From Curvularia clavata (taxonomy: Eukaryota), in contig CP089277.1 in NCBI GenBank assembly GCA_023920165.1, positions 4,388,497 through 4,408,496 on the forward strand: a stretch of DNA of 20,000 bases, in the 5' to 3' direction. This document shows positions 1,361 through 20,000 of this stretch, one piece after another. Position 1 is the stretch's first letter; every line of letters starts with the position of its first letter. The notes beneath the pieces were generated by a model. That model saw nothing but the letters and a program-made list of their open reading frames with translations, had not been told where the DNA came from and did no database searches. The translations under genes and the position numbers were made by a program.

Positions 1361-3441
1361 GACGGTCCCCTGGACCCAAGCTTCTTTCCCTTTCTTTTCC
1401 GCGGAAAGTAGCCATGGTTCTGTTTTGCGTCCAGGTGGATTCTGCAGTTGTCGTCTGTGCAGAAGGTCCAGTGTTCGTTTGGGTGGGGGATCATTTCTTC
1501 CAGCGTCTCTGGCAGGTTGATCTCCTTTGTCCCGTGCATCCTGCACTTGATCGTCCGGCATTCCTTAGCCGCGATCGTGCCGTGCAGATGGTGATCTGCA
1601 TGTCTTGCCGCGATTCTCTGTTCTCGGTGGAATCGGCATTTCTCTATGCAGTTGATCCAGCAGAGCTGCTCGTGAGCTCGTTGATGTTCTTCCTTGTGGA
1701 TGTGGCAATCCAGCATGGGGCAGTCGTTTGCCCATAGATGCTTGTGATTAGGATCATGCTCGTCCAACTTGCATTGTTCTTTAGCATCTGAGTGGAACAT
1801 ACAAAACCTCCTTTTGCATTCGTTCCAGGCGATCATTTCGTGATCGTCGTGTTGCTTCCATGGTGCGTGGATGGTGCAATCCAATACCTTGCATGCTTCA
1901 CTTCTTAAGTGTGCGTGGCAACATTCTTCTGCGTCGTACTGGGACAGTCTCGATTCTTCGGCATGGAACTCGCAGTAGTCTATACTGTCGCATTCGATCC
2001 AGTGCAGCTTTCTATGTTCGTCTTCGCGGTCGTTTTCTGGTTCCGGTAGCTCGTCCTTAAAGTACGGTTGTTCCTGGGCTGCCTGGGCAAGTACTTCCCT
2101 GGCCATCGGCCCTGTGACTGCAATTCTTCTTCCTCGAAGTGGGCAGCCATTGCCGTGGTGTGCTGGGTCTCCGCACATCCAGCATAAGTTTTGTGCGATC
2201 CGACGCTGGGCATCTGTGTCCTTCACGATCCAGTCGGATGGCTGTGGTGGTTCCCATTTCATGTGTTTGTCCGCTCTGACGAGCTCCGGGACAATCACAT
2301 AATCCGTGTTCTCAGCTAGACGTGCTTCGTCGTAGAGGTCTAGATCGCTGAGGTCGTCGTCGGAGGGTAGTGTAGATGGCTGTGACTTCAGCATCCTGAT
2401 CTTTACTACTGCCTGCTTGACTTCGTTCTTCGGGCAGTCTCTGCGGAAGTGTCCTACTTCGCCGCATCGGAGACATGCTTTGTTGTCATAACGCTTCTGG
2501 CGTTCTTCCTTGGAAAGGCCGTCCTGGCCCTTTCCTCGGGGTTTCTTGTCTCTGGTCTTTTCTTGTACTTTTCCCGTCATGATTGTATCGCCGTCCTTGT
2601 CTCGGTTGTTGCGTTGTTTCTTGGTGTTAGCCATGTTGGGTCGAAATTGCCGTTTCTTTTGTTCGTTTCGTTCCCAGATCCTATTGTCGATTCGCGTGGC
2701 CAGCTCAATCAGAGCTTGTAACGTTTCTGGCTTATCATGGTGTACTAGACCGTCTTTGACAATTTCCTTCAGACCGTCTTCGAATACCGTTCGAAGAGCT
2801 GCGTCGTCCCAATCAATTCGCGCTTGTAGCTGCTTAAACTCAGCTGTGTAAGCCGAAACGGACGTGGTCTGCTTCAGGCGTGTGATCGCTTTCTCTGCTT
2901 GGTTCTTGGCGTCGACCTCTCCGAAGACACGTCCCATTTCATCCTTGAAGTTGTTCCAACTTGCGAATAGGGCCTTGGTTTCTTCCTTGGTCCCTTTGGT
3001 CTTTATTGACGATAGGTAGTCCTCCACATATGGTTGGACCCAGTTAGCCGCTTTTCCTTTCATATGCGTACTGGCCATGAGGATCTTTTCCTGATCACTA
3101 GGTACCTCGTTGAATTCGCAGTATAGGTCGATGGTGGTGAGGAACGTTCGTAGGTCGTTACGGTTTCCGTCATACTTTTCGGGAGTTGCCATCTTAGGTT
3201 TCTTGACAACCTTTTCGTTTGGCGTAGCCATCAGCTGACTCATAAGCTGATTAACCATATTCTGCATTTCGATCATCTGCTGTGCCTGAGCCTGGTGCTC
3301 GCGTCTGAGATTGGCAAGTTCCCACTCAGGAGTCCCTGGGGCATGCTCGTTGCCCACTCCCTGGGTGCTTCCGGCCATGTTGATGTCCTGTGCGGGAGCC
3401 GGTCCCTGGACGTTGACATACTCGTTGGAGTTGCGTGACAT
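1351..3441 (-). CDS. gag: Gag protein of element A, 696 aa, with two CCHC knuckles and a C-terminal His/Cys repeat array
   Basis: Retrotransposon capsid-like region (PEKYDGNRNDLRTFL, LKQTTSVSAYTAEF); knuckles CLRCGEVGHFRRDC (2434-2475) and CWMCGDPAHHGNGC (2143-2184); lies between the LTR and pol. Confidence 0.93.
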   Translation of the reverse strand: MSRNSNEYVNVQGPAPAQDINMAGSTQGVGNEHAPGTPEWELANLRREHQAQAQQMIEMQNMVNQLMSQLMATPNEKVVKKPKMATPEKYDGNRNDLRTFLTTIDLYCEFNEVPSDQEKILMASTHMKGKAANWVQPYVEDYLSSIKTKGTKEETKALFASWNNFKDEMGRVFGEVDAKNQAEKAITRLKQTTSVSAYTAEFKQLQARIDWDDAALRTVFEDGLKEIVKDGLVHHDKPETLQALIELATRIDNRIWERNEQKKRQFRPNMANTKKQRNNRDKDGDTIMTGKVQEKTRDKKPRGKGQDGLSKEERQKRYDNKACLRCGEVGHFRRDCPKNEVKQAVVKIRMLKSQPSTLPSDDDLSDLDLYDEARLAENTDYVIVPELVRADKHMKWEPPQPSDWIVKDTDAQRRIAQNLCWMCGDPAHHGNGCPLRGRRIAVTGPMAREVLAQAAQEQPYFKDELPEPENDREDEHRKLHWIECDSIDYCEFHAEESRLSQYDAEECCHAHLRSEACKVLDCTIHAPWKQHDDHEMIAWNECKRRFCMFHSDAKEQCKLDEHDPNHKHLWANDCPMLDCHIHKEEHQRAHEQLCWINCIEKCRFHREQRIAARHADHHLHGTIAAKECRTIKCRMHGTKEINLPETLEEMIPHPNEHWTFCTDDNCRIHLDAKQNHGYFPRKRKGKKLGSRGPSKN

Positions 3442-3492
3442 GGTGATATCTCAATCGGACGCTTGGTGTTAAACCGCTTACCGAATCCGTGG

Positions 3493-3500
3493 GTGGTCAA
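3493..3500 (-). promoter_or_regulatory. Putative self-priming primer-binding site of element A
   Basis: TTGACCAC (minus strand) lies 2 nt inside the LTR end and is complementary to GTGGTCAA (minus, 3729-3722) in the LTR, about 30 nt downstream of TATAAG (3765-3760). Confidence 0.65.
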
Positions 3501-3502
3501 AG

Positions 3503-4009
3503 TGTTACACGGGGTCCTACTGGTTAGTTGGGAATATACTTACCTAGCCTAGATTCCGGGTTAGGGCGAGGCCAGTTTCTATGAAGTATACCGTGAGGTA
3601 GTTGTCTGGCGATTCGGTGGTAGGGATTAACGGAAGATAGACAAAACCAATCCTATTGGAAGATAGAATAACTAGTATCAATCTGAGTATGAAAGGTAAC
3701 TATGAAAGATACTTTGCTGAGTTGACCACAACGAGTGTAATAATGAAATCCAACACATTCTTATACCCATTGCTTCCGGTCCTGTCCTCACTGTCCTCAC
3801 GGAATAACCCCTGTGTTCTCTGAAGTCCCTGAAGTCACTTTGGTCACGTGTGAGCGTGTCCTCACATACTAGCGTGGTTTCCCGGTCTTGGCCTGAGGCC
3901 AGTCATGTGATCGCCCTTCCGCGGGGATCATTACCTTCTGACGTGTCGCCCAATGGTCTCCTACCTGCGGCCATCGTCAAGGAGAGATCCTTCTTTGTTA
4001 CTTGTAACA
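3503..4009 (-). repeat. 5' LTR of element A (507 bp)
   Basis: Bounded by the 7-bp inverted repeat TGTTACA...TGTAACA, 61 bp upstream of the gag ATG, with an abrupt switch to AT-rich DNA at 4010. The second LTR is not in the window. Confidence 0.8.
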
Positions 4010-4531
4010 TATAAGTCTAGCTAGAGATACGCTAGTTATAGGCGTTATTATATGTTCTGCGCCGAACTTTTAGGATAATTACTATATAACAATGCGACAA
4101 GAATATAGGACTGTTTAAAGGATGAAGTTTTAATAGAATATATCCTATTCGTCTAGCTAGTTAGTATAGTTACTTTTATTAGATAATGGATTCATTGGCT
4201 AACTAAGATAGACAGGGAAGAGTACATATATGTTAGCTATCCGGGTGGCTGGGCCCAGCCACCTGAGTTTTTCCCTTATACATCTTTTAATAACTTTGAT
4301 AATCCCACGTCGTGGCTGAGGGCGACTGTGGCTGTGGCGATACAATAAGCCAAGTGAAAACGCTTTTTAAGCCCCTTCTAGAGCTGCAAGGCTAAATAAG
4401 TTGTCTATCCTACTTTATAGCTTATATAGTTTTAATATGAGTAGCTCTTTCAATACAAATAACGTTAGTTTTACTTTATAGTCACTCTTTATTAAAATAT
4501 GGCTTTGTAATAGCTCTTCCAAATCTGCTTA

Positions 4532-5151
4532 CTAGGCATGCCTGTTTAACAACCACTTCACAAGCTTAGCTATCGGCCCGCCGTTTAGCCTCTATTCGCA
4601 AGACCTACTACCCGCGTGCTGGAAGAGTCCTGAAAGCTTCGAAAACGTAGTGTCGCATTCTGGACACCTAAATAGATAAACCGCGCTATCGTACTCTTCC
4701 TCCAAATTATAATAGCGAAGGAGGTCGTCACGGTACTCCTCGTCGAGGAACTTCTGCCACTAATAGCACATTGCAGCTGACTCGTTCAAGTCAAGAACAT
4801 CAATACCAGACGTACACGTCCCAGACTCTAGATGAATTATCATCCCAAAATAAGTAGTAAAGGATCGAGTATAACTATAGCATTCGACAGAACGCTCTAG
4901 GTGCACCAGCTTGTGCTACTAACTATTCGTTAGAGCAAGGAATGAATCAGGGTACGTACAGAACGTTCAAAAACAGTAATACCTACATGTCGCAGATTGC
5001 TGAGGCTATCAAAGTGACGCTCGCATATCGTACACACATTATCATCCCTTAAATGGTCCTTGTACGCTTGGCTATCCGGTATCCACCACCCACTATCGTT
5101 ACAACCGTCGCACATAACCCTATCATATATCCCCAGCGGAACTAGGGTCAA
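4532..5151 (-). pseudogene. RIP-damaged fungal C2H2 zinc-finger protein gene (5' end uncertain)
   Basis: CTICERHFDSLSNLRH|HKLVH is joined across a phase-0 intron 4986-4916 (GTAGGT, CTAAC, TAG); continues with IIHLESGTCTSG and FRCPECDTTFSKLSGLFQH; in-frame TAG at 4760-4762 and 4592-4594; final stop 4532-4534. Confidence 0.8.
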
Positions 5152-5387
5152 AATCGACCCAAGTTCCCAATTTCTTGGCGAGTTTACTGATGCTAGTTCT
5201 GCAGAATCAAGAGTGAGTGCAGAACTAGCATCGGAACAGTATTCAAAATATATGCAACTTCTATCACAGATGCAAAAAACCCGTGCCAGTTCAACAAACT
5301 ACTTTTCATGATTATAAGATAACTGTAGCGCGAGATATTTGATGAAATGTGATGAAGAGTTGGTGTTCGCTGATGTGGCCCGTGCCC

Positions 5388-5444
5388 TAGGGTAGGGTAG
5401 GGTTAGGGCTTAACCCCAAGTTAACCCCAACCCCAGAATTAGGG
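5388..5444 (+). repeat. Degenerate interstitial telomere-like tract
   Basis: (TAGGG)3 TTAGGG at 5388-5408, then TAACCCC/AACCCC units, then TTAGGG at 5439-5444. Confidence 0.75.
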
Positions 5445-5448
5445 TTTT

Positions 5449-5719
5449 TGTAACGGCGCGAGCAAGACTAGTCGAATCGGTTCCGGTGGGAAGTGTCACT
5501 CAAATGCATATGGAAGTGCGTGGGACAGCAGAAACACCTTGGATTCGGTAGACACTCATAGGCCTGGTACGAAAGGATATCAAAAATCTACCGAACATCT
5601 ATGGAAGGTACCTGGTACTTATACCTGGGTGCGGGTCTTCATCGGGTCTGACCCGGCTCTCAATCGGATCTTGATAAGCTGCCCTGGCTGGGGTATGTTT
5701 TGGTCTATGCATGGTTACA
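5449..5719 (-). repeat. 3' LTR of element B
   Basis: TGTAAC...GTTACA termini; direct repeat of 12374-12644. Confidence 0.97.
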
Positions 5720-5733
5720 TTACCCCCCCTCCC
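5720..5733 (-). promoter_or_regulatory. Polypurine tract of element B
   Basis: GGGAGGGGGGGTAA on the minus strand abutting the 3' LTR. Confidence 0.9.
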
Positions 5734-6204
5734 GGTAGACAGCTGGTCCCACAGCTGTCTGTTCCGGTTGTCATTCTTCTTCCCTGCACCATGGGGTCCC
5801 TCGTTCCTGATTTCCCCCAGATTTTCCCCACACTGCGCCACTTCGGGCAATAGGATGCTCCGGTTCCGGTGTGGCTCCCGTGGCCGTGCATGTCCTTCAC
5901 TTGAGCCTCTGTGCCTGAGCCTCAGTGACCATTCCGGTACTCACGTGGCGCTGCTGCCTTGCTGCCTGGCCGCTAGGCCGTTTGCCTTCACCTGCCAGAC
6001 AGGCCTGGACGCTTCGATCGGAGCTCCGAGTCGCCGGCGATTCGTTTGTAGTCAGGGTCCAACGGCTATCCAGGTCACGTGTGCCAAGACTGTTTGCTCC
6101 CCCAGTGTGTATATCAACAACAACACAGTGTCGCCGCCGAGTTTTCTCCTCCACGCTTCTCAATCAAAACAAGTCAATTACAACTCAACGCACTCGTTTT
6201 CGCT

Positions 6205-6872
6205 ATGCCTCTTCGTTGTCCGCCCGGTGCGCTGCCGGATGCGTATCGCTTCATCTGTCTGCGAGCTGTCCGCGCCTTGGCGCGCCGTCAGTTCGACATT
6301 GCTTACGCCTACCCGTCCGATTCCTCCAAGAAGTGTCTTTATTGCACCCAGCAGAAGGAGAAGTGCGATCCTGTAAGTTTGCTTCTCTTTTCCTTCACTG
6401 TTTGCAGCTTGGCTAACCCGGATAGGTTCCCGAGTACGTCTTCGAGGAGTTTCACGATTTGATCGATGCCATCGAGTTGTGTGCCATCGCTCGGTATGGC
6501 CCTGCAGTTGATGCCGATACGGAGGTATTGCTTGATCGAATCGCTGCCGCCGCTTTGGACATCGCCCGCAAGGTCCAAGTTGTCAGGTCCCAGGAGAAGG
6601 AGCTTTCAGTCAATCAGCTCCTCGTCGCCCAGAACCAGGTCCTGAGGGACATCCGAGACAGCATCTCGGAGTTGGTCGATACAGTCAATGGCATGGAAAG
6701 GCGCCTTTCGCGTCTTGAGGCCAGGTCGGCTCGGGGTGGCGCCCGGGTCGGCCCTCGGGTCGAGGAGTCGGAGGAATGGTCTGGTTTGTCCTCCTCCTCA
6801 GAGGAGGACAAGGGTGCGGTTGACCAGGAGATGGCCGACGCTGAGCAGGAGCGCTCTGATGTTGAACTTTGA
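6205..6872 (+). CDS. Antisense two-exon accessory gene inside element B (exons 6205-6372 and 6426-6872; 204 aa; Cys motif, coiled coil, acidic tail)
   Basis: 53-nt intron with GTAAGT donor (6373), GCTAAC branch site (6412-6417) and TAG acceptor (6423-6425); splicing joins track ORFs 6079..6462 and 6459..6872 in frame (KCLYCTQQKEKCDP|VPEYVFEEF); CT/CA-rich leader before the ATG. Confidence 0.82.
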
Positions 6873-6970
6873 GTGAGGTGACATTTTGGGGGTTTGTTGG
6901 TGGTTGTGGGGTTCGGGTCCGAGTTTCCTTTGTTACTGATACCCAATGAAGTTTCTGTTTTTCCTTTTCT

Positions 6971-9900
6971 TTAAATTTTGTCATCCTGCAGTGAAGTCAT
7001 ATCCTCTGTGCCTTGTTCCCATGCCGTGATCCACTTGCCAAGGGAACGTGGGGGTCCCGGTTTGGTGGGATGTTGTTCATGGAAGAGTTTGAGCTTGTGT
7101 GGGGCTCCCATGAAGTTTGAGGCTGGGTACCAGGTAGGATCCGGGTCATGTCCGACCCACCGTACTTGGTATTTTAGGTTTGAGCGGTACAACTTGCTTG
7201 CTAGGATTTCTTCTACCTCCCATTCTTCCACGCCTTGGATGGGAGTTGCTGGGGGCTTTGGAGGTTCTTGTCCTGGGAGGGGGTCTTGAGGATCTTTGCA
7301 TAATAGATCCGGGGCGAAGACATCATGGATCCGGGACCTTTTCGGAAGGTCCAAGCGGTATGAATGTCCTACCTTCTCAAGTACCCTGAAGGGTCCCTCC
7401 CATTTGGAGGATAGCTTCCTACTCGGACGGTCTGACGCGAGGTTCCGGGTACTTAGGAAGACCATGTCTCCCACATCCCAGTCAACAGAACGACGATGGC
7501 GGTTGACTGTGGTTCGCATCCTGTCCTGGGCTTTCTCCATTTGTTCCTTAGCTACCTTCCATGCGTCGTGCATGCGGGTAGCCATTTCCAATGCATCCTT
7601 ATGGTTGAGTTTGTCAGTGGGGGTGAGAAGGCTGGTGGAATGTTTCCAGTCCCAACTCTGCCGGGGTTCGGAACCATATAGGATGTGGTACGGGGACATG
7701 CCAATGGAAGAATGTGGTAGGGAAATTTGAGCACGATCGATCAAAGGTAGAAGTCCACTCCAGTTGTCTTGGTAGTAGGATACGAATGGGCGCAACCTCT
7801 GATCGATGTACTTATTCATAATCTCTGTCTGACCATCCGTTTCTTTGTGGTAGGCGGTTGACAGCTTGACCTTAACGCCTAGGATTCGGCAGAATTCCGA
7901 CCAGAAGCTTGAAATGAACTGTGGTCCTCGGTCAGAGACTATGGTTTCAGGTGTGTGGCCAAATCGGTACACCCATTGAACGAATAGGTCGGCCATTCCC
8001 CTTGCATCAATAGTCTTGTGGCAGGGGATGGAGATGGCCTGCTTAGATAACCGGTCGATCACGACCATGATCATGTCGTAACCGGATCGGTCTCGGGGAA
8101 ATTCCTTAAAGTCGATGCACAGGTGCTGCATCGGCCGGTCAGGAATTGGCAAAGGATGAATCATCCCTGGAATTCGGGTCTGTCTAGGATGGGCCTTCCT
8201 ACAGGCTATGCAATTCCGCACATACCTTTTACAGGTGGATTCCATACCCTTCCAGTGGTACTTCTGGGACAGTAGTTGGTAGGTCTTCTTTGCACTGGGG
8301 TGCGCTGAGGATACCTGGTCGTGTACTTCCCGAATGAGGCGAGTCACAAGGGTAGAGGTGGAAGGAATGCATAGGCGGTTGGAATAGAGCAGGAGTCCGT
8401 TTTCGATCCGGTATCTGTCCGGAAGGGACCTTCGCTCTGCCCCAAACGAGGCTCGGTTCTCTTGTAGGATAGACTCGATCAGCTCCAGCGAATCGAGGGA
8501 CATCGGCTCCGATATGGGCTCAACTACAAGTAAGGAGAAAGATTCCGCTTGGAGTTGGGCTACATAGGTCTTAGCAAGTTCGGAGTTGATTCGGTTGTCA
8601 AGTCGGTGCGGTCCCAGGAGGACCCGCGAACGGTTGTCAATTTGGGCTGTCTTCAGATTCCCCACATCTTGCTCCCGTCGGGAGAGGATGTCAGCACGAG
8701 CATTATCCTTTCCGGGGGTGTATCGGATGTGGAAATTGAAGGATGCCAACTCTTCCGCCCATCGCACCTGGCGGGCATTCAGAACTTTGGTAGTCATGAA
8801 GTATTCAAGGGAACGGTGGTCTGAGTACACGTCGACACGAGAGCGTACCGACAGCAGTTCAGGTCGCCACTTGCTAAACGCCGTTACGATGGCGAATAGT
8901 TCTTTGTCGTGTATTTCCCAGTTCAGCTCAGACCCGGATAGGACCTTGCTGAAGAATGCTACAGGACACCAATTTCCATTTGGCTGCTTTTGGGAAAGAA
9001 CGCCTGCCACAACGCCATCGGACGCGTCGGTCTCCACCTTGGTATCATACTCTGGATGGTAGTGGTACAAGGTGGGAATTGCCAGCAGTGCAGATTTTAA
9101 CCTTTCAAAGGCTTGGTCGCACTCCGAATCCCATACGAATGGTCTTGAGGGGCTCTGGAGGGCGAGGAGAGGTTTCGCAATTCGCGAGTATTCAGGAACG
9201 AACTGCCTGTAGAACCCAGTGAACCCTAGGAACGACTTCACACCAGTAACGGTGGTAGGTCGGACCCAATCTTGAAGGGCTTCCACCTTGTCAGGGTCCA
9301 CCTCTAGACCTTGGTTGGTCAAAATGTACCCTAGGTATTTGGTCCGAGTGACATGGAATTCGCTTTTCTTGATGTCAACTTGGAGACCGGCTTGCCTAAG
9401 CCTTTCCAAGACCTGTTGTACGTGGCGGGGGTGGTCCGGTTCCGATTCGGAGTAGATCAAAATGTCGTCTAGGTAGACTATGCAGAAGCTGTCTAGATAA
9501 TCAATCAACACATCATTCATGTAGCGTTGATATGTTGCAGGGCCGTTGCATAATCCAAAAGGCAACACTTTGGACTTGTAGGTTCCGTATCTAGTGCGGA
9601 ACGTGGTGTACTCCTCCGAGTCGGGGTGCATTCGGATCTTGTTGAATGCCGCACGTATGTCGAGCTTGGTGAAGATTTTCGCCTTGTGGGTGCGGGCTAG
9701 AAGCTCGTCAATGCGTGGTATCGGATACGCATCCTTTCTGGTGATTGCGTTGAGTCGGCGGTAATCTACACAGATGCGAATGTCTCCGTTTGGCTTCCGA
9801 ACACAAAGGACTGGGGAGGCGAAGGGGCAGTGGCTTGGGTCAATGTGTCCTTTCCTAAGGTTTTCCATTACGAACGTCTTGGTGGCTTCGAGTTCTTCAG

Positions 9901-10906
9901 TGCTCTGCTTGTACAGAGGACTGAATTGATTCGGAAGAGGTTCGGTCAGCACAATCTTATGATCGTATGGGCGATGTTCGGGCAGTAGCTCTGCCGCTGT
10001 CTTGCTGAAGACATCGCGGTACGAATGGTAAGCGGATGGAAGTCGGTCCCGAACAAGTTTGGCGTTTTCGGGATCGTCTGGCTTCATGCGCTCTTCTAAG
10101 ATGCGATCGATCTCATAGATACTTGTCGTGAAGAACTCGTTTTCCTTACGCTTCATAGAATAATGGAAAGCATTTGCCGAAATGATGGCGATACGGGGTG
10201 AAGATGTTGGTCGGATAGGGTCCGGAGTAGGGTCGGGAACAGGTAGTGGTAGACGAACCTTGGGAAGTTTGAGGCATCCTCTAATTCTTCGCATGAGAGC
10301 TTTGCGAGGACTGTTTTGCCTACGGTAGTTGTCCTTTTCCCATAGTGCGTCTCGCCTCTGTATGTCCCGTTCCACATCAGCATCGATGGAAGGTTGTTTC
10401 AACTGTACAAGGATAGGTGGCGCGGGATCATATGTTGGAGGGTACTTGGCCGGCCATACGATCCGGTTCCGGCTCGTATCAAGCCTAAGCTGGAAACGTC
10501 TTAACCACTTGATTCCAATTATGCAGTCCTGTGTCCCTAGATCCATGATCACGAAGGGACAGTTGTAAATCTTTCTTCCATCGATTCGGATATGTAACCG
10601 AATATATTTGTCTACCCTAGTTTGGACTTGGTCCTGAAATCCTTTGACTGTGATCTTGAAGGGAAGTCTTCGGATGGGGACCTGAAGGGAGCCGGAGAGG
10701 GTACGAGCAATAGCAGAATTTAAGAATAAAAAGCCTTGGGCTCCAGTGTCAACTAAGGAGTGCAAGCTGACACCAAACCCTTTCGAACAAAGAACGGTGG
10801 GTACTAGGAAGTGTTTTCCTCCGAACAAGTGGGATAAATCAATTTTAGCTAGATCGTACTTGTTCATGCCTAGGGCGGAGAGTTTTCCTAGGCCTGGTGG
10901 TTTCCC
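6971..10906 (-). CDS. pol: Pol polyprotein of element B (protease, RT, RNase H, integrase, chromodomain)
   Basis: LVDTGAQG; YLDDILIYS; VETDASDG; HDQVSSAH...CIAC zinc motif; IVSDRGPQF and TDGQTE integrase core; KWEGPFRV; EEWEVEEILASK...YQVRWVGH chromodomain. Within track ORF 6971..10993; real entry is probably the frameshift at 10906-10900. Confidence 0.97.
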   Translation of the reverse strand, partial: GKPPGLGKLSALGMNKYDLAKIDLSHLFGGKHFLVPTVLCSKGFGVSLHSLVDTGAQGFLFLNSAIARTLSGSLQVPIRRLPFKITVKGFQDQVQTRVDKYIRLHIRIDGRKIYNCPFVIMDLGTQDCIIGIKWLRRFQLRLDTSRNRIVWPAKYPPTYDPAPPILVQLKQPSIDADVERDIQRRDALWEKDNYRRQNSPRKALMRRIRGCLKLPKVRLPLPVPDPTPDPIRPTSSPRIAIISANAFHYSMKRKENEFFTTSIYEIDRILEERMKPDDPENAKLVRDRLPSAYHSYRDVFSKTAAELLPEHRPYDHKIVLTEPLPNQFSPLYKQSTEELEATKTFVMENLRKGHIDPSHCPFASPVLCVRKPNGDIRICVDYRRLNAITRKDAYPIPRIDELLARTHKAKIFTKLDIRAAFNKIRMHPDSEEYTTFRTRYGTYKSKVLPFGLCNGPATYQRYMNDVLIDYLDSFCIVYLDDILIYSESEPDHPRHVQQVLERLRQAGLQVDIKKSEFHVTRTKYLGYILTNQGLEVDPDKVEALQDWVRPTTVTGVKSFLGFTGFYRQFVPEYSRIAKPLLALQSPSRPFVWDSECDQAFERLKSALLAIPTLYHYHPEYDTKVETDASDGVVAGVLSQKQPNGNWCPVAFFSKVLSGSELNWEIHDKELFAIVTAFSKWRPELLSVRSRVDVYSDHRSLEYFMTTKVLNARQVRWAEELASFNFHIRYTPGKDNARADILSRREQDVGNLKTAQIDNRSRVLLGPHRLDNRINSELAKTYVAQLQAESFSLLVVEPISEPMSLDSLELIESILQENRASFGAERRSLPDRYRIENGLLLYSNRLCIPSTSTLVTRLIREVHDQVSSAHPSAKKTYQLLSQKYHWKGMESTCKRYVRNCIACRKAHPRQTRIPGMIHPLPIPDRPMQHLCIDFKEFPRDRSGYDMIMVVIDRLSKQAISIPCHKTIDARGMADLFVQWVYRFGHTPETIVSDRGPQFISSFWSEFCRILGVKVKLSTAYHKETDGQTEIMNKYIDQRLRPFVSYYQDNWSGLLPLIDRAQISLPHSSIGMSPYHILYGSEPRQSWDWKHSTSLLTPTDKLNHKDALEMATRMHDAWKVAKEQMEKAQDRMRTTVNRHRRSVDWDVGDMVFLSTRNLASDRPSRKLSSKWEGPFRVLEKVGHSYRLDLPKRSRIHDVFAPDLLCKDPQDPLPGQEPPKPPATPIQGVEEWEVEEILASKLYRSNLKYQVRWVGHDPDPTWYPASNFMGAPHKLKLFHEQHPTKPGPPRSLGKWITAWEQGTEDMTSLQDDKI
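10868..10906 (-). promoter_or_regulatory. -1 ribosomal frameshift signal of element B
   Basis: G_GGA_AAC heptamer (10906-10900) in the gag frame, 6-nt spacer, then a 7-bp stem GCCTAGG/CCTAGGC (10893-10868); the -1 frame is the pol ORF. Confidence 0.85.
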
Positions 10907-12078
10907 GCCCGGTCCTCCTCCGATAAGTATTCGTGTGCTTCTTCGAATTCTTCCTTCTCTGCTTCGATTTCTCGAACCCGAGGAATGGGGCACTCATTCG
11001 CATAATGTCCAGGTTTTCCGCAGTTATAGCAATTGCTAGTAGTCGGTTTGCTATCCAGTGCGGGGGTCTTTGAAGGGAACCTGGGGGTATTAGAATGAGC
11101 GCGAGATTGGGTCGGAGCTGGTTCGGATCGGACTCCATAAGTGTTTGGGCGGTAGTCCCGGTATTGACTGACGCGGGGCTTCGTTGGTGGAGTACGAGAA
11201 TTATTGGAAGTGGGTTCCGAACCGTGTCCGAAAGGAGTGTTCCTTCTTTCGGTATCGAAGGCAGTAAGGTGTTGTATCATCTTGTCAAAGGAGTTGTTCC
11301 ACTGGTGTTTAAATCCCAAGTTTGGAACACGCAAGGCGGGGGTAATTTTTTCCCATAAGTAGAAAAACCACTCCGACTTCGATACGGATCCTTTGACGGC
11401 AGCACTTATAAATTTTGCCTTAAATTCAGCGAAGGTTTCCTTTTTGTCCATGAGCAAGCGGTGGAAAGCAGCGCGGCTTTCCGCTTGCTCGTTGCCGGAT
11501 ACGAAGTATGATTTTAGAGTAGCTATCATATCTTCGGCGTTTTGGAACCGGTCCTCCACCGAATCGGCTAGGTACTGTGGTTCCAGGTATCCCTTGGCGA
11601 TACCTGTAGTATGTCCCCAGACTAGAGCCATGCGTGCGCGTTCACTCCGATAATGGTCCGCGTTGATTGTTAAGCGGTCCTCTATTGACGCTTGCCATTG
11701 GCGGAACGTAGGTTCTGTTCCATCACTAAGGTTATCAATGGAAGGGGTACGTTCTGTGAGTTTGACACGTAGCAGGTCCGGGGTTGCTGACTGGTACCTT
11801 CCGAATTGAGTTTCGGTTGGTTCAGCGATAGTCGGTGGTGATTCGGTGGAGGGGAGAGGTTGATCTGGGGCTGCGGTGTTTTGGCGGGACAGCCGTGCGA
11901 TTTGTTCGTTTAGCCTGTCGATCTCTGCCCGAAGGAGGCTAGTCTCATCCTCTTCCGAATCCTCTTCCTCTTCGACGGCTGGCGGTTTGCCAGGCGTCTT
12001 CTCTCTTGACTTCGAATCTTGGAAGCGCGGCGACTTCCTGGAAAGCTCTCCTGAGCCGGATGGGGTTCGGTCAGCCAT
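10888..12078 (-). CDS. gag: Gag protein of element B, 396 aa
   Basis: CCHC knuckle CYNCGKPGHYANEC near the C-terminus; lies between the 5' LTR and an overlapping pol. Confidence 0.93.
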   Translation of the reverse strand: MADRTPSGSGELSRKSPRFQDSKSREKTPGKPPAVEEEEDSEEDETSLLRAEIDRLNEQIARLSRQNTAAPDQPLPSTESPPTIAEPTETQFGRYQSATPDLLRVKLTERTPSIDNLSDGTEPTFRQWQASIEDRLTINADHYRSERARMALVWGHTTGIAKGYLEPQYLADSVEDRFQNAEDMIATLKSYFVSGNEQAESRAAFHRLLMDKKETFAEFKAKFISAAVKGSVSKSEWFFYLWEKITPALRVPNLGFKHQWNNSFDKMIQHLTAFDTERRNTPFGHGSEPTSNNSRTPPTKPRVSQYRDYRPNTYGVRSEPAPTQSRAHSNTPRFPSKTPALDSKPTTSNCYNCGKPGHYANECPIPRVREIEAEKEEFEEAHEYLSEEDRAGNHQA

Positions 12079-12358
12079 CGACGGTTGTCTTCGTGGCTGA
12101 TGGGTTTTTGGTAGTCTCCGAGTCTCTACCTTGGCGCAATCTACGCGACTTCTCCGAAGTTAACCTGACTGCAATCAGTACAGGAGGTCCAAACCCAAAG
12201 GCTTCGGTCGGCGGGAGATCGAAGGGATCCCGCCTGTGTGTGAATGTGGGACGTAACGGTGTGAAGTATCCGGAGCGGTTCCGGAGGGACTTGGGCTTGG
12301 GCGCGGTCTCAACAAACAAGCTGCGATATTGTTTTGAAGGCCGTCACCGGCTGGGACG

Positions 12359-12371
12359 AGATTTTTGATAT
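12359..12371 (-). promoter_or_regulatory. Self-priming primer-binding site of element B
   Basis: ATATCAAAAATCT (minus) lies 2 nt inside the 5' LTR and is perfectly complementary over 13 nt to AGATTTTTGATAT (minus, 12514-12502), about 30 nt downstream of TATAAG (12548-12543). Confidence 0.85.
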
Positions 12372-12373
12372 AA

Positions 12374-12644
12374 TGTAACGGCGCGAGCAAGACTAGTCGA
12401 ATCGGTTCCGGTGGGAAGTGTCACTCAAATGCATATGGAAGTGCGTGGGACAGCAGAAACACCTTGGATTCGGTAGACACTCATAGGCCTGGTACGAAAG
12501 GATATCAAAAATCTACCGAACATCTATGGAAGGTACCTGGTACTTATACCTGGGTGCGGGTCTTCATCGGGTCTGACCCGGCTCTCAATCGGATCTTGAT
12601 AAGCTGCCCTGGCTGGGGTATGTTTTGGTCTATGCATGGTTACA
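12374..12644 (-). repeat. 5' LTR of element B
   Basis: Direct repeat of 5449-5719, followed by TSD GTTTT. Confidence 0.97.
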
Positions 12645-12805
12645 GTTTTGTGCACTAGGGCAACGTCGTACGACTAGATTCGTGTCGGCAGAGCAACCAA
12701 AATAAGTAGAAATGTAAACAGCGATCTATTTACTGCTACGTAGCAGCAATATATAAGAGGCTTAGTGGATAGACGTAAATATATTAATGCTGGTCAGAAT
12801 AAGCT

Positions 12806-13113
12806 AAAGGCCCCTTTTTGGACTCAGTCAAAACCTATCAAACCTAGCCAAAGACACCTTTTTGGACTCAGTCAAACCAGTCAAACCAGTTAAATCAGTC
12901 AAAGTCAGTCAAAAGCCCCTTTTTGGACTCAGTCAAACCAGTCAAACCAGTTAAATCAGTCAAAGTCAGTCAAAAGCCCCTTTTTGGACTCAGTCAAACC
13001 AGTCAAACCAGCCAAACCAGCCAAACCAGTCAAACCAGTTAAACCAGTCAAACCAGTTAAACCAGTCAAACCAGTCAAACCAGTCAAAGGCCCCTTCTGA
13101 TGGACTTAGTGAA
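12806..13113 (+). repeat. Compound minisatellite upstream of the helicase (helicase-associated-repeat-like)
   Basis: 9-bp CAGTCAAAC units nested in larger units headed by CCCCTTTTTGGACTCAGTC or variants, starting at 12811, 12855, 12916, 12977 and (degenerate) 13091; 61-bp period in the middle. Confidence 0.9.
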
Positions 13114-13465
13114 AATAAGCGTTTAAGGTGAGAGAAAGTGAGAGACGTTTAGCTGCTCATATCACGTCAAAATGAGCGTTTGAAATGGGAAAAGCTGGCC
13201 TGTAATATATGTATTAAATCTCTAAGGATAATGTAATATTCTAAATCTGATAGTTCTATATATTTCAAAACATTCTCCAAATTCCCATCAATCAAGCCTG
13301 CCGACCTACTCTCAAAACTCGACTTGAGAGCTTCGCTTCAATCCACGACTGCGACAAAAAAAAAGCGACTGGCAAAAAAAGAAAGTCTGGCCAAGCGCTA
13401 TCTGTAATCCCTTACCCCCCTACTCTTAGACTGGCTACTAACTTCTACTTAGACACGATTCTACC

Positions 13466-14111
13466 ATGGCTACTTCTGATCGTGGCTATCTCCTTCTAAG
13501 CTGGTTCAATCATAAAGAGCGTCGGGACTACTATTACAAGGCGTACAGCTCAACTCCAGACGCTCTTGACATTGTCATTCACGCTGCTGTAGTAAGTTGC
13601 TCTCCTATACCAAAAAGAATAGTATACTAACAGTTCTCTAGTTCCAAGAGGCTATCCACCGACTTCCAGACATTCCCGCCATCAATCTAGTAGAGAATGG
13701 TGGTGATACTGAGATAGCTGGAGATGTCTACAAAATCCATCTGAAGAAGGCTATTTCCTTTCCAGCTGCTTTCCAGCTTAATGGCTATGTCGACTTTCTT
13801 GAATATCTATCTTCTTTACATTTCCTCTCTTAAAAAGTCAAAATTAATCTCAAGTTAGGTCGCCTAGGGACGTACAGAATGGCTGTACTAAGACTTCGCC
13901 AACTACCTATCTCAAGTACTGTCGGATCTAGATTGATGATGAGGGTTGCTGTCAGGAGGGAGATTGTCTTGCGCACTATCTTGATTCTCAGCTGTTCTTT
14001 CTTCTAAGTCCGCCATGGCTAGTACTTCCACATATGGTTCCTGAGGTGGCTCAAGAGTTTCTAGGCTAGAAACTCAATGACTAGCTAAGGCGGATGCAAG
14101 AGGGGGAATAA
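13466..14111 (+). pseudogene. Small spliced gene of unknown function, probably RIP-damaged
   Basis: ACCATGG start; exon 13466-13591 (MATSDRGYLLLSWFNHKERRD...); intron 13592-13641 (GTAAGT, TACTAAC, TAG); exon 2 in frame (FQEAIHRLPDIPAINLVENGG...). A downstream coding-like frame with TAG stops ends at TAA 14109-14111; the second junction is uncertain. Confidence 0.6.
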
Positions 14112-14770
14112 GGGGTTACTAATGTACAACAGTTTCTAAAAGGAGTTAAAGGACTTGCTTTTTACTTACTTTTTTACTTACTTATCTTAAGGTTTTTCTA
14201 ATCAAGAGTTGGTTTTTGGATTACTGTGATAAAAGACTGTGATAATTAATAGTAGGGAAAATCGTATTAATTGTTCTGTCTTCTAGCAGCACGTAGGCGC
14301 GCTGCCTTATAAGCGCTATCGCTATTACTTTTTATATTAGGTAGATGGCTGAGTATTAATCTCGCCTAGAAGTAGGTCTTGGCGCTTAGAATCCGGGTAT
14401 GATCGAGCACCTGGATTCTGTAGCGTACTCAACAGCGCGACCCCCTACTAGGGATGTTAGTGTTAGGGCAACTGTTGCTCTCTCCCGACTCTCCCCACCA
14501 CATTACTTTCTCCTCAATAGCAGTGCAATAGGATCTAACAACGACGCCAGATGGGGGTATTGTAGAAAGTTTTCTAGCTACCCCCCAGGTATCTTTCTTC
14601 TACTAGTCGTTGTGTGAGATTTAGATAAGAGCTTGACCCCAGCAACGCTGTTGCTAAGAGAACCGGGGTAACGTCGGACAACTAACCGAAACAAACAGAA
14701 ATGTAAATAGCCAACAATTCACTACTACGCAGCACCCACAACGTTGCTTATACTGTGATTACTGACTACT

Positions 14771-17700
14771 ATGGATCTATTTAGAGAGATTTTTGTATAT
14801 TTGCCTACACATTGCATAGCGATATGCAAGAGCCATAAGCAAGGCGTCGTAAAGTCGCAGCTGCGCACCCACTTAGACACTAAGCACCAGGAGCTGGCCC
14901 CCCATACACGGCGCAGCATGGTGCAAGCCACTAGCCAGGAGCCATGGCTGCGCAACTGGGCCGAGAGTGCAGACCAGGTCATGTTTCCACGTCCAGATGC
15001 TGCGCCGCTGCCCCATATGCCCGTGTACACAGACGGCTTGAAGTGCTGGGAGTGTGGATATATTTGCCGGCACGTGAAGAAGATGCAGGAGCATGGCCGG
15101 AACCACCACAACTGGACTGGCAGCAACACACGCAGAGTCGGCCGTCCAGCAGCTATACAGCAGAGGTGGACAGACAGCGTCATATGCCAGAAGTTTCAGA
15201 ACACCGGTACGCTGGGCCGGCTGTTTGAAGTCCAGAGCGCTGCACCCGCTGAGCCAGCAGATAGCGATGACGGGGAGACACAGCTAAGACGCGCATTTAC
15301 TACTGCCATTACACAGATCGACCAAGTGATAGAGAGCAAAAAGGCTAGTAATGTCGTTGAAGAAGACGGCAGCCGGTGGGGATTCGAGGACTGGCTGGAA
15401 CGAGCTGGCTGGGTACGGCACTTGAAGGGGCTGGACCGGCTGTGGCTGCTGGACATGGCACTAACACCCAGTTACCACGAACGGGCACTGCAGGACGTGT
15501 GCTGGGCAGCCGAGATGGTGATTTGGAGGGCGCAGCAGGTGTCTCACTCGAGCGTAGTAGGCATGCCCGCCATTATGCATATCAACCGGCGCGAGTATGG
15601 GACAAAGACGAATGAGAAGCCATTCAACGCGAGCCAGATGGAGACAACTATGAAAAAATACCGCAGCGTGTGGCTCCAGATTATAGTATATATCTGGCGC
15701 ATGTACGAGCTGCCTGTAGTCTAGCTAGATTCCAGCAATGAAGTGCAGGGCAGACGCCCACCATACCGCTTGACAAGCGAGCAGAAGGCATGTTTGGAGG
15801 AGCTGAAGGATTTGACTGGGTATAACCCAGAAGAGGAGGCAGCTAGCACAGCGCGGAGCATAGAGCCAGGGGGCAGCTATGGGGAGGACAGTGACAGCGA
15901 GGACGAGCAGCTGGATGCAAAATACGGCGAGGCGTTGCAGGACCAAGTGCTTGCGTTCATGCTTGCGCTGCTAGATTACAAGCTACCCAGTATTGAGTTT
16001 GAGAGTGGCTTTATAAGCGGCATGGCGGTGCTAGGAGTAAGCGCAGACAGAGGATGGCTAGATGCGCCCATGTATACGCCCAAGCAGTCTGCCGTTGTCG
16101 CTATATCGCGCATGCTTGTATTATACCAAGCACACAAGGAGCGGACAGCGAAGATTGATAAGCTAGTGGCTAGTGGGTACAGCAAGGAGGCAGCTAGTAG
16201 GATCGCACCGACGCATCTCGAGCTGGTGCAGGACATGGGCTACAGATTTATGGTGCTAGCCGAGTTCAACGGGCAGCCCACGCCCATGGATGCTGTTTTA
16301 CGGCTACGAGCATTTGGCTTTACGGCCTAGTTTAACACCAATGCTGAGGGCGTGATAGACTGGGTGGGCGACACGTTGTTGTATGGGCAGATCCAGTTCA
16401 GCATGGCGCAGCTACGGACGATGGTGCACGGCATGATTGCCAGCACGCGACAGGACATGCTGAAACAGCTGCTACTGCTAGAGCTGGACAGTGAGGGCGA
16501 GGTGGTGCCTGGGACGACGCCGTGTCCCGCTATTTACTGGGACAAGCTAGTAGACAATGCCGCGCAACGGCAGGCTGGATGGAGTTTTATGGAAGACGCG
16601 CGCAACCACCAGGCTACTAGTGCACAAGACCCCAAGCGCTGGCTAGTAGGGCGCGTTCAGCAAGAGAAGAGACTGCGACATGAGTTTGCTGATGCTGCGG
16701 CGTCGCGTGTGGCTATGGCGGGGGGTGGTGGGCTAGTGTGGGTGAAGGAGCGCATCCGGGCATACTACAAAGCCATGCAACAAGCCCGCCACGCACTTGC
16801 AGTACTTGTGCATATAATAGGAGGTGCGCCACCGCGTGGTAGTGAGTTACTAACTATCCGTTTTAAAAATGATGGGCAGGGGCACAGTCGCGGAATTTTT
16901 ATCGAAGATGGTGCAGTAGTTTTTGTTACCACTTACCACAAAAATATTGCCCAGAATAGACGCGGTAAAGTGATCCACCGCTATGTCCCGCGCGAGGTAG
17001 GGGAACTAGTCGTATTTTACTTGTGGTTTTGCCGTCCATTTTGGCAGCGGTTAGTGGTGGCAGCGTGGGGGGAGGCGGAAGAGGAGAGTGGGTATATGTG
17101 GGAGCCACAGCCCGAGCGGCGCTGGCAAGAACCCACCTGCGGGCGAAAGCGCAGTGCAGACCTACAGGGCACAAGAAGAGTAGGAAAAGCGAGCTGGGTG
17201 AGGACTGTGGTGCGGCGGGAGGCGTTAGACGAGGAGAGTGAAGGAGAGAGTAGAGAGGAGGGAGAGAAGCGACGGGAAGAGAAGGAAGAGAGAGAAGAGA
17301 GTCGGGTACTGGCTGACAAGCCGCCCACGGTAGAGCAATGGAACTCCAACCGACTTAAGCTGAGGATATAAAAGGCATCGCTACAATATATGGGGATTAA
17401 GCTAAATGTAATTGGGTGGCGGCATGCATCTAAGGCGATTTGGCGCCGATATATTCAGAACCCCAAGGCACGTAAGGCGTACTTGAATGCAGATGAGGAC
17501 GATGCGGAGGAGGAGGAAGACGAGGCGTTCGACTTACAGACCGGGCATGGTAGTAGAGTGGCTGGCGCAATTTACGGGCGGTCGCTGAATGAGGCGGCGT
17601 TTAGTGTGGAATCTAAGCGGTTTATGTTCCGAGTATCGAGCAGCGAGTGGCACAGGTTTTTGGAGCTCCCGTCTGTGCAGGAGAAGAAGCTACAGCTACT

Positions 17701-19645
17701 GCAACGGAGCCCGCTGGCTGTCAAGGCGCGCAGGGAGGCGTTGGAGGAGGAGTACCGGCGGTGGAAGATGATGCGGCTGGTGGACGTGGACAGTGAGCTG
17801 CAGCGGCTACTAGGATGCAACGCGCAGTTTCGCAGTGTACAGAGGCCGGCGATGCAGGCGATTATGCGGTATGAGAGTCCCGTTGTGGCCATTATGGGGA
17901 CGGGGGCTGGCAAGAGCGTGTTGTTTATGCTGCCAGCGTCTGTGTCAACGGGGGTTACGGTTGTAGTAGTACCGTTGGTGGCACTGCGGTTTGACATGAA
18001 GACACGGTGTGACGAGCTGGGGATTGTTAGTGGGGAGTGGGATAGCCGGCGTCCGTATAGGAGTGTGTAGATTATGTTTGTGACGCCAGAAGCGGCGGTG
18101 GGAGAGGCGTTTGGGCATTATATTAACCGAGAGCGGTCGATAGGGCGGCTAGATCGGATTGTGATTGACGAATGTCACTCGATACTGGACTCGCTTAAGG
18201 GATTCCGTAGCCGGCTGCTAGGACTGCGACAGCTGCTTTGGGTGGAGACGCAGATGGTGTATTTGACGGCGACGCTGAGGCCGAAGGAAGAGAAGCAGTT
18301 TTTGGATGTGATGGGGCTGCCGGAGAAGAGGAAGTGTTAGTGGTTCCGGGGGCGGATAACGCGTAAGAATATCCGGTATGCAGTACACGAGTATAATATA
18401 GAAGAAGAGGAGAAGACAGTAGTGGGATTAGTAGAGAAGCTAAAGAAGAGATACCCGCTACCAGGGCAGGTGATTGTGTACTATGGGACGATCGCACGGA
18501 CAAAACAGATAGGCAAGGTGCTAGAGGCGGCTTGTTACTACTGGGCGGTAGGGACAGTAGAGGAGAAGAAGAAGATTGTGCGGGAGTTGACGAGTGGGCA
18601 GCAGCAGGTATTTGCGGCAACCAATGCGTTGGGACTGGGGGTAGACGCACCAAGGATCCGGGCGGTGGTATATGTAGGAGGGGTGCAGCAGATGCGGCAG
18701 TACGCGCAGGAGAGTGGACGGGCTGGACGAGATAGGGAGAAGAGCGAGGCGATTATTATGCGGGGATATTAGATAAGGGGGAGAAAGAAAGCGTTTGTAA
18801 GAGCAGAAGGGGGAGAGGTAGAAGAGGATATACAGTTGTTTGTAGAAGGCAAGGGGTGTATGCGAGCAGTACTTGACTGGGCTATGGATGGAGTGGAGCG
18901 GGGGATGTGTGAGGAGGATGAGGTAGCATGTCAGCGGTGCGGGTGGGAGAGTAGTGATGAAGAGGAAGAGGGAGAAGAGGGAGAAAAGAGAGAGGACGAA
19001 GACGGAGATGAGGAAGAGAGAGAAGAGATGGGATTGCGGTTGGCGTTTGAGCAGCAGAGACGGCAGCGGCAGTGGGTAGGGATGGTAGAAGCGGAGCGGC
19101 AGTGTCGAGATGCGATGGAGGTAGAGGAGCTGGTCGGGGTAATAGAGAAGTGGCGGGAGGGCTGTCAGTGGTGTGTAGCGAGTGGAAGAGATGGGCGAGG
19201 GCACGTATGGGAGGAGTGTGAGGACGAAGGGGGTCAGGAGGGGCTAAAGGGACTCAAGATGCTGCAGGACAACTGGCAGATTGTGCCGTATTCGTGCTGC
19301 TACGGGTGCTGGCTGCCGCAGGCGGTGTGTGAGAGCTTTGGGTTTGACATGCAGAAGGGGGGATATCGAAAGCAGAGAGAGGTAGGGTGTTAGTATAATG
19401 GGGTACTAGACAAGGTATTTATTATTGGGTTGATAAAGGCAGGGTTGGCGGTACATAAGGTGATGGAGTAGGCGATTAAGGAGGATGGGGGGCTAGGGTT
19501 TCGGGTAGACGAAGAGGAGGTTGGGGGCGTGTTGAAGGGGTGGGCGCGGTGGGGGAGTGAGAAGAAGCGGTGGGGAGGGATTGAAGGGAACAAGTTAAGC
19601 TGGGTTATTCAGCGGGTAGACGAGTATATTTATATAGAAGAGTAG
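14771..19645 (+). pseudogene. Telomere-linked RecQ-like helicase (TLH-type): DUF3505-like zinc N-terminus, tyrosine-recombinase-like middle, RecQ helicase and Cys-rich C-terminus; 1624 codons with 8 in-frame stops
   Basis: Seven track ORFs share one frame with no indels; stops at 15722, 16328, 17369, 18068, 18338, 18770, 19391, 19469. Helicase motifs MGTGAGKS, VVVPLVAL, IVIDECH (DECH 18167-18178), LTATL, ATNALGLGVD, QESGRAGRD and an RQC-like CMR...C...CQRC; oriented toward the telomere array. Confidence 0.92.
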
Positions 19646-19720
19646 CAAGGGAATGATTTAAAATAGAAAGAAAAGACTATAACGCTACTAAGCGCAATTG
19701 ATAACTAAAGTTTAGTAATT

Positions 19721-19829
19721 TTATAGATAATTTGTATAAATAGTAGTAAATTATGGAAGATAGATAAGTATTGATTATAGATAATTTGTATAGAATAGCG
19801 GCAAATTACGGAAAATAGATAAGTATTAA
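19721..19829 (+). repeat. Two-copy ~54-bp tandem repeat abutting the telomere array
   Basis: TTATAGATAATTTGTATA...ATAGATAAGTATT at 19721-19774 and 19775-19829, differing mostly by transitions. Confidence 0.85.
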
Positions 19830-19949
19830 TAGGGTAGGGTTAGGGTTAGGGTTAGGGTTAGGGTTAGGGTTAGGGTTAGGGTTAGGGTTAGGGTTAGGGT
19901 TAGGGTTAGGGTTAGGGTTAGGGTTAGGGTTAGGGTTAGGGTTAGGGTT
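19830..19949 (+). repeat. Telomeric repeat array (TAGGG)2(TTAGGG)18
   Basis: Perfect TTAGGG repeats 19840-19947 preceded by two TAGGG units; followed by about 50 nt of non-telomeric sequence. Confidence 0.98.
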
Positions 19950-20000
19950 GCTGTCACACGAGTATGGAAGTCGTTCTTTAACCTTAGCAATACGTAACTG

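Follow-up and report, generated by a model that had tools for sequence, protein, structure and literature searches.

The last 20 kb of contig C4 in an assembly of Curvularia clavata (32.4 Mb in 8 contigs) hold a helicase gene with the same 16-bp telomeric word on either side of it, and the question raised by this locus is whether those words mark the borders of an element that targets telomeres, or whether the unit has another kind of end and another way of spreading. By the window we mean this whole stretch of 20,000 nucleotides, numbered from its first letter. To our knowledge, telomere-linked helicase (TLH) genes at fungal chromosome ends have been known for more than 20 years with neither a function nor a mode of spread assigned to them. 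The unit is a dead fungal TLH region, killed by RIP, and it sits at a real chromosome end: TTAGGG tracts were found at 15 of the 16 contig ends, and the window has a true telomere of about 20 units on the plus strand (19830-19949), the first unit being a TAGGG variant. The one exception is the right end of C8, the final 25 kb of which have no telomere tract, and where the assembly seems to stop short. The non-telomeric letters beyond the telomere in the window (19950-20000) are common to other contig ends and resemble what we take to be untrimmed long-read sequencing adapter and barcode. At the other side of the window lies a second LTR retrotransposon (1-4010, with a 508-bp LTR at 3503-4010), whose near-identical copies on C1R, C6L and C7 point to recent activity. 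The closest protein homologs of the locus come from Pyrenophora, Bipolaris and Parastagonospora, which indicates a probable pleosporalean host.

A sequence-only reading of the window had taken the telomeric words for the flanks of the unit and for possible recombination or target sites, and its description of the letters was accurate. The 16-mer is present in identical copies at 5393-5408 and 19830-19845. An LTR retrotransposon (5449-12644, minus strand) with identical 271-bp LTRs (5449-5719 and 12374-12644) and a 5-bp target-site duplication (TSD; 5444-5448 and 12645-12649) was inserted later, being absent from the C5 and C8 copies of the unit, and a copy of the retrotransposon on C7R is 99.97% identical to it. 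Its removal leaves a segment of 7,220 bp, inside which lie the tandem repeats, a small two-exon ORF and the helicase gene, as that reading had it. As borders, the words were rejected: the left one is internal, and the right one opens telomeres that have no unit. Homology had been expected to start and stop at the telomeric words, but the C5, internal C4 and C8 copies align with the window from 5116-5120, a sharp end about 270 bp to the left of 5388, so that the left word lies 270 bp inside the unit. The sequence-only reading had itself named homology reaching well to the left of 5388 as grounds for its refutation. It belongs to an internal telomere-like block (5388-5445, plus strand) that is retained in all four of the copies extending that far and is an analogue of Magnaporthe HAR-F in the HAR table of PMC1635262. 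The right word is the start of the telomere, and its first three letters are unit sequence held in common with the C5 copy. Genome-wide the 16-mer occurs eight times, three times in left segments of the unit and five times at telomere junctions, four of which (C2L, C3R, C5R and C6R) have no match to the unit. In the near-full-length C5 copy (83.6% identity to the window unit over 7,066 bp), unit sequence goes on for about 230 bp after the point where the window meets its telomere, and the 16-mer is missing where this copy meets its own, which suggests that the window copy was truncated and then healed.

It is therefore very improbable that a telomere-targeting element uses the words for recombination or as its targets, even though the two words are identical and a report on Fusarium TLH regions describes telomeric repeats on both sides (bioRxiv 10.1101/2024.02.27.582403). 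In L147, a relative, the end is joined straight to a TTAGGG-rich tail, as in the Fusarium arrays, and the picture drawn by the sequence-only reading thus does occur elsewhere in the family; here, the C5 copy lacks the word on its right side and a telomeric tract was found in none of the flanks of the 12 genomic copies described below. The same reading had offered, as its alternative, that a chromosome once ended at the left tract and that the subtelomere was added to it later. Internalised telomeres are described as common in Pyricularia (PMC8381367), but this explanation is barely credible, because copies at four loci with unrelated flanks all have the block in the same place, and because the block includes C-strand words, which are not expected of a telomere relic. 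The telomeric bracket is coincidental and ordinary, with separate causes on the left and on the right. What survives of the proposal is its wider idea, that of a discrete and mobile element which carries a recombinase and is associated with chromosome ends, without the telomeric words as its borders.

The interior of the unit, from the retrotransposon rightward, begins with tandem repeats of 9, 44 and 61 bp (12793-13096, plus strand), also found in the C5 copy. A 2-kb passenger segment, absent from the internal C4 copy, holds the small two-exon ORF (13466-13833, plus strand; about 105 aa), the exons of which were read by hand, and which had no Pfam match above the cut-off. Next, at 14448-14734 (plus strand), the inner portion of the left segment recurs in degenerate form (78% to 12695-12745 over 51 bp, E 4e-8); this second copy also weakly matches the telomere-like block. 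Beyond the helicase gene lies a truncated 3' tail (19646-19829, plus strand) with a 55-bp duplication and no defined right end; the C5 copy continues further. Over 17000-19829 the coding strand is strongly purine- and G-skewed (purine 0.64-0.66, GC skew about 0.5), a skew also seen in the tails of relatives.

The TLH pseudogene itself (14771-19645, plus strand) is one frame of about 1,620 codons with eight TAG or TAA stops, and, like the TLH gene of the C5 copy, it adjoins the telomere and is transcribed toward it. The two differ by 748 transitions and 252 transversions, and transitions about three times as frequent as transversions, as expected from RIP, indicate that the gene was killed by this process. 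On the plus strand, Pfam identified OrsD/DUF3505 with its N-terminal C2H2 motifs (PF12013, E 1e-22; 14789-15112) and, above the cut-off, DEAD (17834-18025) and Helicase_C (18461-18733). The latter two matches, and homologs named RecQ, make the helicase one of SF2/RecQ type, and it comes after the published "TLH domain" (16778-17671, plus strand).

It is this TLH domain that is predicted, from a structural model, to have the tyrosine-recombinase fold with a conserved, putatively catalytic R-K-R-H-Y set. The candidate residues, assigned by motif and order, are R693, K728, R888, H930 and Y939, which are kept in 56, 55, 55, 56 and 55 of the 56 aligned proteins, respectively. The model (pLDDT 76.7) matched the archaeal Xer 4a8e best (Z 11.0, rmsd 3.3 Å over 156 residues), the best unrelated structure in the comparison scoring Z 2.9, and all 25 chains at Z>=5 are recombinases, integrases, type IB topoisomerases and two phage DNA-binding proteins of the same fold. 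Against this assignment stand the first His of H-x-x-R, which is not conserved (position R-3 is variable and mostly hydrophobic in the 56 proteins), and a Foldseek search of the PDB without a match at E<=0.001, in which the same recombinase family ranked first without significance. Pfam returned nothing for the recombinase segments, and an atlas search placed unnamed eukaryotic clusters first, the Phage_integrase and NDC10_II clusters appearing only at 0.81, as a lead. No Pfam match to an HUH Rep or a Pif1 helicase was found in the six segments scanned (1,448 of 1,622 codons), the domains identified there being of other kinds.

The true left end of the unit is the junction at 5118-5123 (plus strand), with CTAT at 5120-5123. 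Copies in this genome were found by searches with the end sequence and with an inverted-repeat pattern; the pattern control returned 0, and the pattern also matched one further site on C6, outside the 12 copies. All 12 copies share CTAT and lie on 12 unrelated flanks, the sequence upstream of CTAT differing in each. Eighteen bp inside the CTAT end is a subterminal inverted repeat (5138-5167) with 12-bp arms and a 6-bp spacer (5150-5155). Depending on the copy, 7-12 of the 12 arm positions are paired, three positions have changed on both arms (one such change could be due to RIP), and two further arm copies lie at 5189-5200 and 5221-5232. Two of the copies are long and telomeric, one is internal and 2.1 kb in length, and the remainder are relics, 50-440 bp long, with variable stopping points; every copy found in this genome is broken, and most of the 16 chromosome ends are without a unit. 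The distance to a chromosome end is no more than 140 kb for 11 of the 12 left ends (binomial p 2e-12), the other being 0.9 Mb inside, and six ends point toward the nearest chromosome end and six away from it. Doubled ends occur in L155, L181 and C7. Three frames, from three of the eight relic loci, were scanned for gene continuity; one had unrelated genes on the two sides and two were uninformative.

Several other loci came to light in these comparisons. At L118 (C3:4682978) a relic of 78 bp has an Ldi-family gene on one side and an isolated polyketide KR domain on the other, and from this position it may be the joint of a rearrangement. A stretch of about 23 kb that is duplicated at about 91% identity (C4:4246119-4269788 and C6:13754-44588) includes a divergent TLH gene, 31-37% identical to P0002, with a C-strand telomere-like block upstream. 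Near this gene, at C4:4245731, is a candidate CTAAC end resembling Magnaporthe HAR-C, which was picked up by a relaxed scan for the end motif at a threshold that also gave several chance-level matches.

What the unit was joined to could be seen at a few places, three junctions being comparable with a target, and the X2, X3 and X7 junctions and the C4 paralog each represented by a single contig. Of 23 runs, 19 with small word shares were left out. To the left of the window's junction lies the remnant of a host C2H2 zinc-finger gene (4550-5118, minus strand), which is without its first ~55 codons and whose homologs are about 230 aa long; it matches the homolog P0069 and gives a weak Pfam zf-C2H2 hit below the cut-off. 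In run X3, from another organism, one contig follows the flank through 5123 and then departs into other sequence, the letters of which, read by hand, continue in frame and match residues 46-55 of P0069. This identifies an uninterrupted zinc-finger gene having 6 bp in common with the unit end, and the unit was joined into the host gene, destroying it. The empty site is therefore a host gene, and not, as the sequence-only reading had anticipated, a tract that runs into TTAGGG repeats. The missing 5' part of the gene had no distinct match elsewhere in the genome (a weak test), the window's left flank has no paralog in the genome, and one zinc-finger alignment crossed the junction by about 26 residues at low identity. 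Run X2, from a second sample, has the window's junction unchanged. For the internal C4 copy, an inverted paralog of the flank continues without the unit after a 4-bp overlap, which is approximate because the paralog is only 93% identical; among the loci compared, this was the one copy of the 12 with an empty left-flank paralog. In run X7 the end is preceded, with a 3-bp overlap, by 27 letters identical to window 13418-13444, and this junction is a join into the unit's own passenger segment. As a separate observation, one arm of an inverted duplication on C4 (4272901-4273463 and 4283339-4283644) ends in a TLH end, and the other continues upstream of what is, by eye, a 2-hydroxyacid dehydrogenase gene.

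The same kind of end was found in distant relatives. From 141 metagenome relatives 80 loci were kept, 40 of which had the gene start and at least 300 bp upstream, and in 18 of these 40 the motif CTA[TAC]C is followed by an inverted repeat; shuffled sequences gave 0.2, the reverse strand 0 and the inside of genes 1. This count is partly post hoc, since the motif was defined after these loci had been viewed; 22 of the 40 loci failed it, and some of the 18 that passed are close relatives of one another. In 15 of the 18 the inverted repeat is centred 27.5-28.5 bp from CTA, and the arm sequences vary between subfamilies with their self-complementarity retained. An independent check was provided by Magnaporthe, where HAR-C is followed by the HAR-D palindrome at a spacing, measured by hand from the published boundary, of 27.5 (PMC1635262). 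L133 and L134 have an identical 485-bp end on different flanks. Among viral contigs, 26 pattern matches yielded no confirmed relative.

A sharp left end shared across the family suggests that the units are spread by a recombinase working from one end only, and a joining event started at one end by the recombinase and finished by copying or by telomerase healing is the explanation to which we give roughly even odds (about 0.5). In such a process, the recombinase domain would bind the inverted repeat and cut at the CTAT end, and the cut end would be joined to a target with 3-6 bp in common; the helicase would then drive copying along the donor, and the far end would be completed on arrival at a telomere, through healing by telomerase, or, where copying stopped early, by end-joining, which would leave short relics. 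For the window, the join would have removed the 5' part of the zinc-finger gene, after which came the LTR insertion, the inactivation of the TLH gene by RIP, and the truncation and healing of the tail. A fixed donor end, a short overlap, the lack of a TSD or a right end, and loss of the distal part of the target all fit one-ended joining, as do the same left end on 12 flanks, its concentration near chromosome ends, the two empty sites with overlaps of 6 bp (X3) and 4 bp (C4), the X7 self-join with its 3-bp overlap, the end motif and spacing in relatives including Magnaporthe, the shared and doubled ends, and the recombinase fold with its conserved residues. Points on the other side are that the window copy is dead and its recombinase activity is a prediction, that the three junctions with a target include one approximate overlap, and that the qualifications on the fold and on the end motif given above apply here too. 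In addition, simple replacement of the distal chromosome arm predicts neither the six ends that point away nor the one 0.9 Mb inside, and the join at 5118-5123 lies outside the spacer of the inverted repeat, about 18 bp outside the repeat, unlike the spacer sites of standard tyrosine recombinases. Both the orientation split and the join outside the spacer go unexplained by the simplest one-ended form, which keeps two rival explanations alive.

One of these supposes an element with two ends, as in Cryptons, excised as a circle via short direct repeats and inserted in either orientation, with the right end truncated in every copy seen. It accommodates the 6:6 orientation split, the 3-6 bp overlaps and the recombinase-type inverted repeat, and in Cryptons the terminal direct repeats measure 4 or 6 bp and a circle has been proposed (PMC3212892). 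A right end, on the other hand, was not to be found: none is shared among the genomic copies, each of which is truncated; an all-against-all comparison of the metagenome downstream regions gave no shared right boundary, these regions passing via purine-rich repeats into telomere repeats; and no right-end junction was present among the loose contig ends listed. None of the 80 metagenome loci had terminal repeats of at least 20 bp, although short-read contigs can hide circles. Together with the zinc-finger 5' part lacking a distinct match in the genome and the relic that separates unrelated genes, this makes the two-ended explanation an unlikely one.

According to the other, the TLH region is a domain of the host's own subtelomeres, its protein helping to maintain telomeres, for instance by cutting at the inverted repeat when ends are fused or tangled, and the region spreads passively by break-induced or microhomology-led repair, the sharp end being the cut site. 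TLH regions have indeed been treated as subtelomeres and are induced in telomere crisis, according to PMC1635262 and bioRxiv 2024.02.27.582403, and relics with flanking duplications resemble MoTeR relics (PMC8381367). Such a role sits poorly with a genome in which all copies found are broken and most ends are without the unit, and with a join that destroyed a host gene, and passive repair alone gives no single fixed donor end; we consider it rather unlikely. Recombinase-started joining at one end is thus kept as the working explanation, and the spread mode of the TLH unit is testable and possibly new.

Adaptive genes are concentrated in fungal subtelomeres. If the one-ended explanation is true, it would provide a further mechanism of transposition and help to explain how genes are lost and rearranged in these regions. 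The end sequence, the candidate binding site, the named catalytic residues and the empty sites make TLH function and spread directly testable. We tentatively suggest, short of an even chance, that the TLH regions of fungi make up a new class of mobile element in eukaryotes, in which a tyrosine recombinase-RecQ fusion with a single end (CTA-x-C and an inverted repeat about 28 bp in) grafts the unit onto chromosomes, which are truncated or rearranged in the process, the other end being provided by telomerase. Already published are sharp boundaries, palindromes, telomere motifs within the unit and arrays flanked by telomeres (PMC1635262, bioRxiv 10.1101/2024.02.27.582403, PMC5576322); a recombinase domain in TLH proteins, the end geometry across families and the empty sites were not found in the literature searched, which covered few subscription papers (Rehmeyer 2009 and Gao 2002 not among them).

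With Xer and Cre the unit shares the predicted fold, the putative catalytic R, K, R, H and Y, and an inverted site of 12-bp arms and a 6-bp spacer, and it departs from them in lacking the first His of H-x-x-R and in having a long acidic insert, a helicase fusion and a join outside the spacer. Helitron and IS91/ISCR elements have one end that is defined, with a subterminal hairpin, and one that varies; they have a nuclease-helicase fusion and no TSD, and use an HUH nuclease and a Pif1-type helicase, whereas the unit's protein combines a predicted tyrosine-recombinase fold with a RecQ-type helicase. Helitron features appear in bioRxiv 2025.11.13.688278, and the same source (10.1101/2025.11.13.688278) describes a Helitron-like, tandem-amplified unit that holds a DUF3505/C2H2 fragment and has CTATAT as its junction word. 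Cryptons (Kojima and Jurka 2011, PMC3212892) likewise have a eukaryotic tyrosine recombinase, a short target overlap and no TSD; "helicase" has 0 occurrences in the available text, and Cryptons have direct repeats at both ends, unlike the unit, for which no right end was found.

Among TLH regions themselves, the DHX_G198 repeats of Colletotrichum higginsianum share a helicase with DUF3505, embedded TTAGGG motifs, a secondary LTR insertion and fragments elsewhere in the genome; they are at all 24 ends, with no terminus or recombinase described in the accessible part of the paper (PMC5576322). The TLHcr units of Fusarium oxysporum share a gene of about 4.7 kb with C2H2, a "TLH domain", to which the accessible text assigns no function, and RecQ motifs, and they are described as lying between telomeric repeats, as single units or arrays (bioRxiv 10.1101/2024.02.27.582403), unlike the unit, in which the left telomeric word is internal. 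A further such region is TLH region I of Magnaporthe oryzae (Rehmeyer et al. 2006, PMC1635262), which was treated as subtelomere and in the available text of which the word "recombinase" is absent. Shared with it are a sharp inner boundary (CCTAACC there) with an imperfect palindrome just within, telomere-like motifs upstream of the gene (those of HAR-F lie near the TLH gene there), tandem repeats and variable truncation on the telomere side; unlike region I, the Curvularia unit is present as a long copy at 2 of 16 ends and as ten relics, and its empty sites can be seen.
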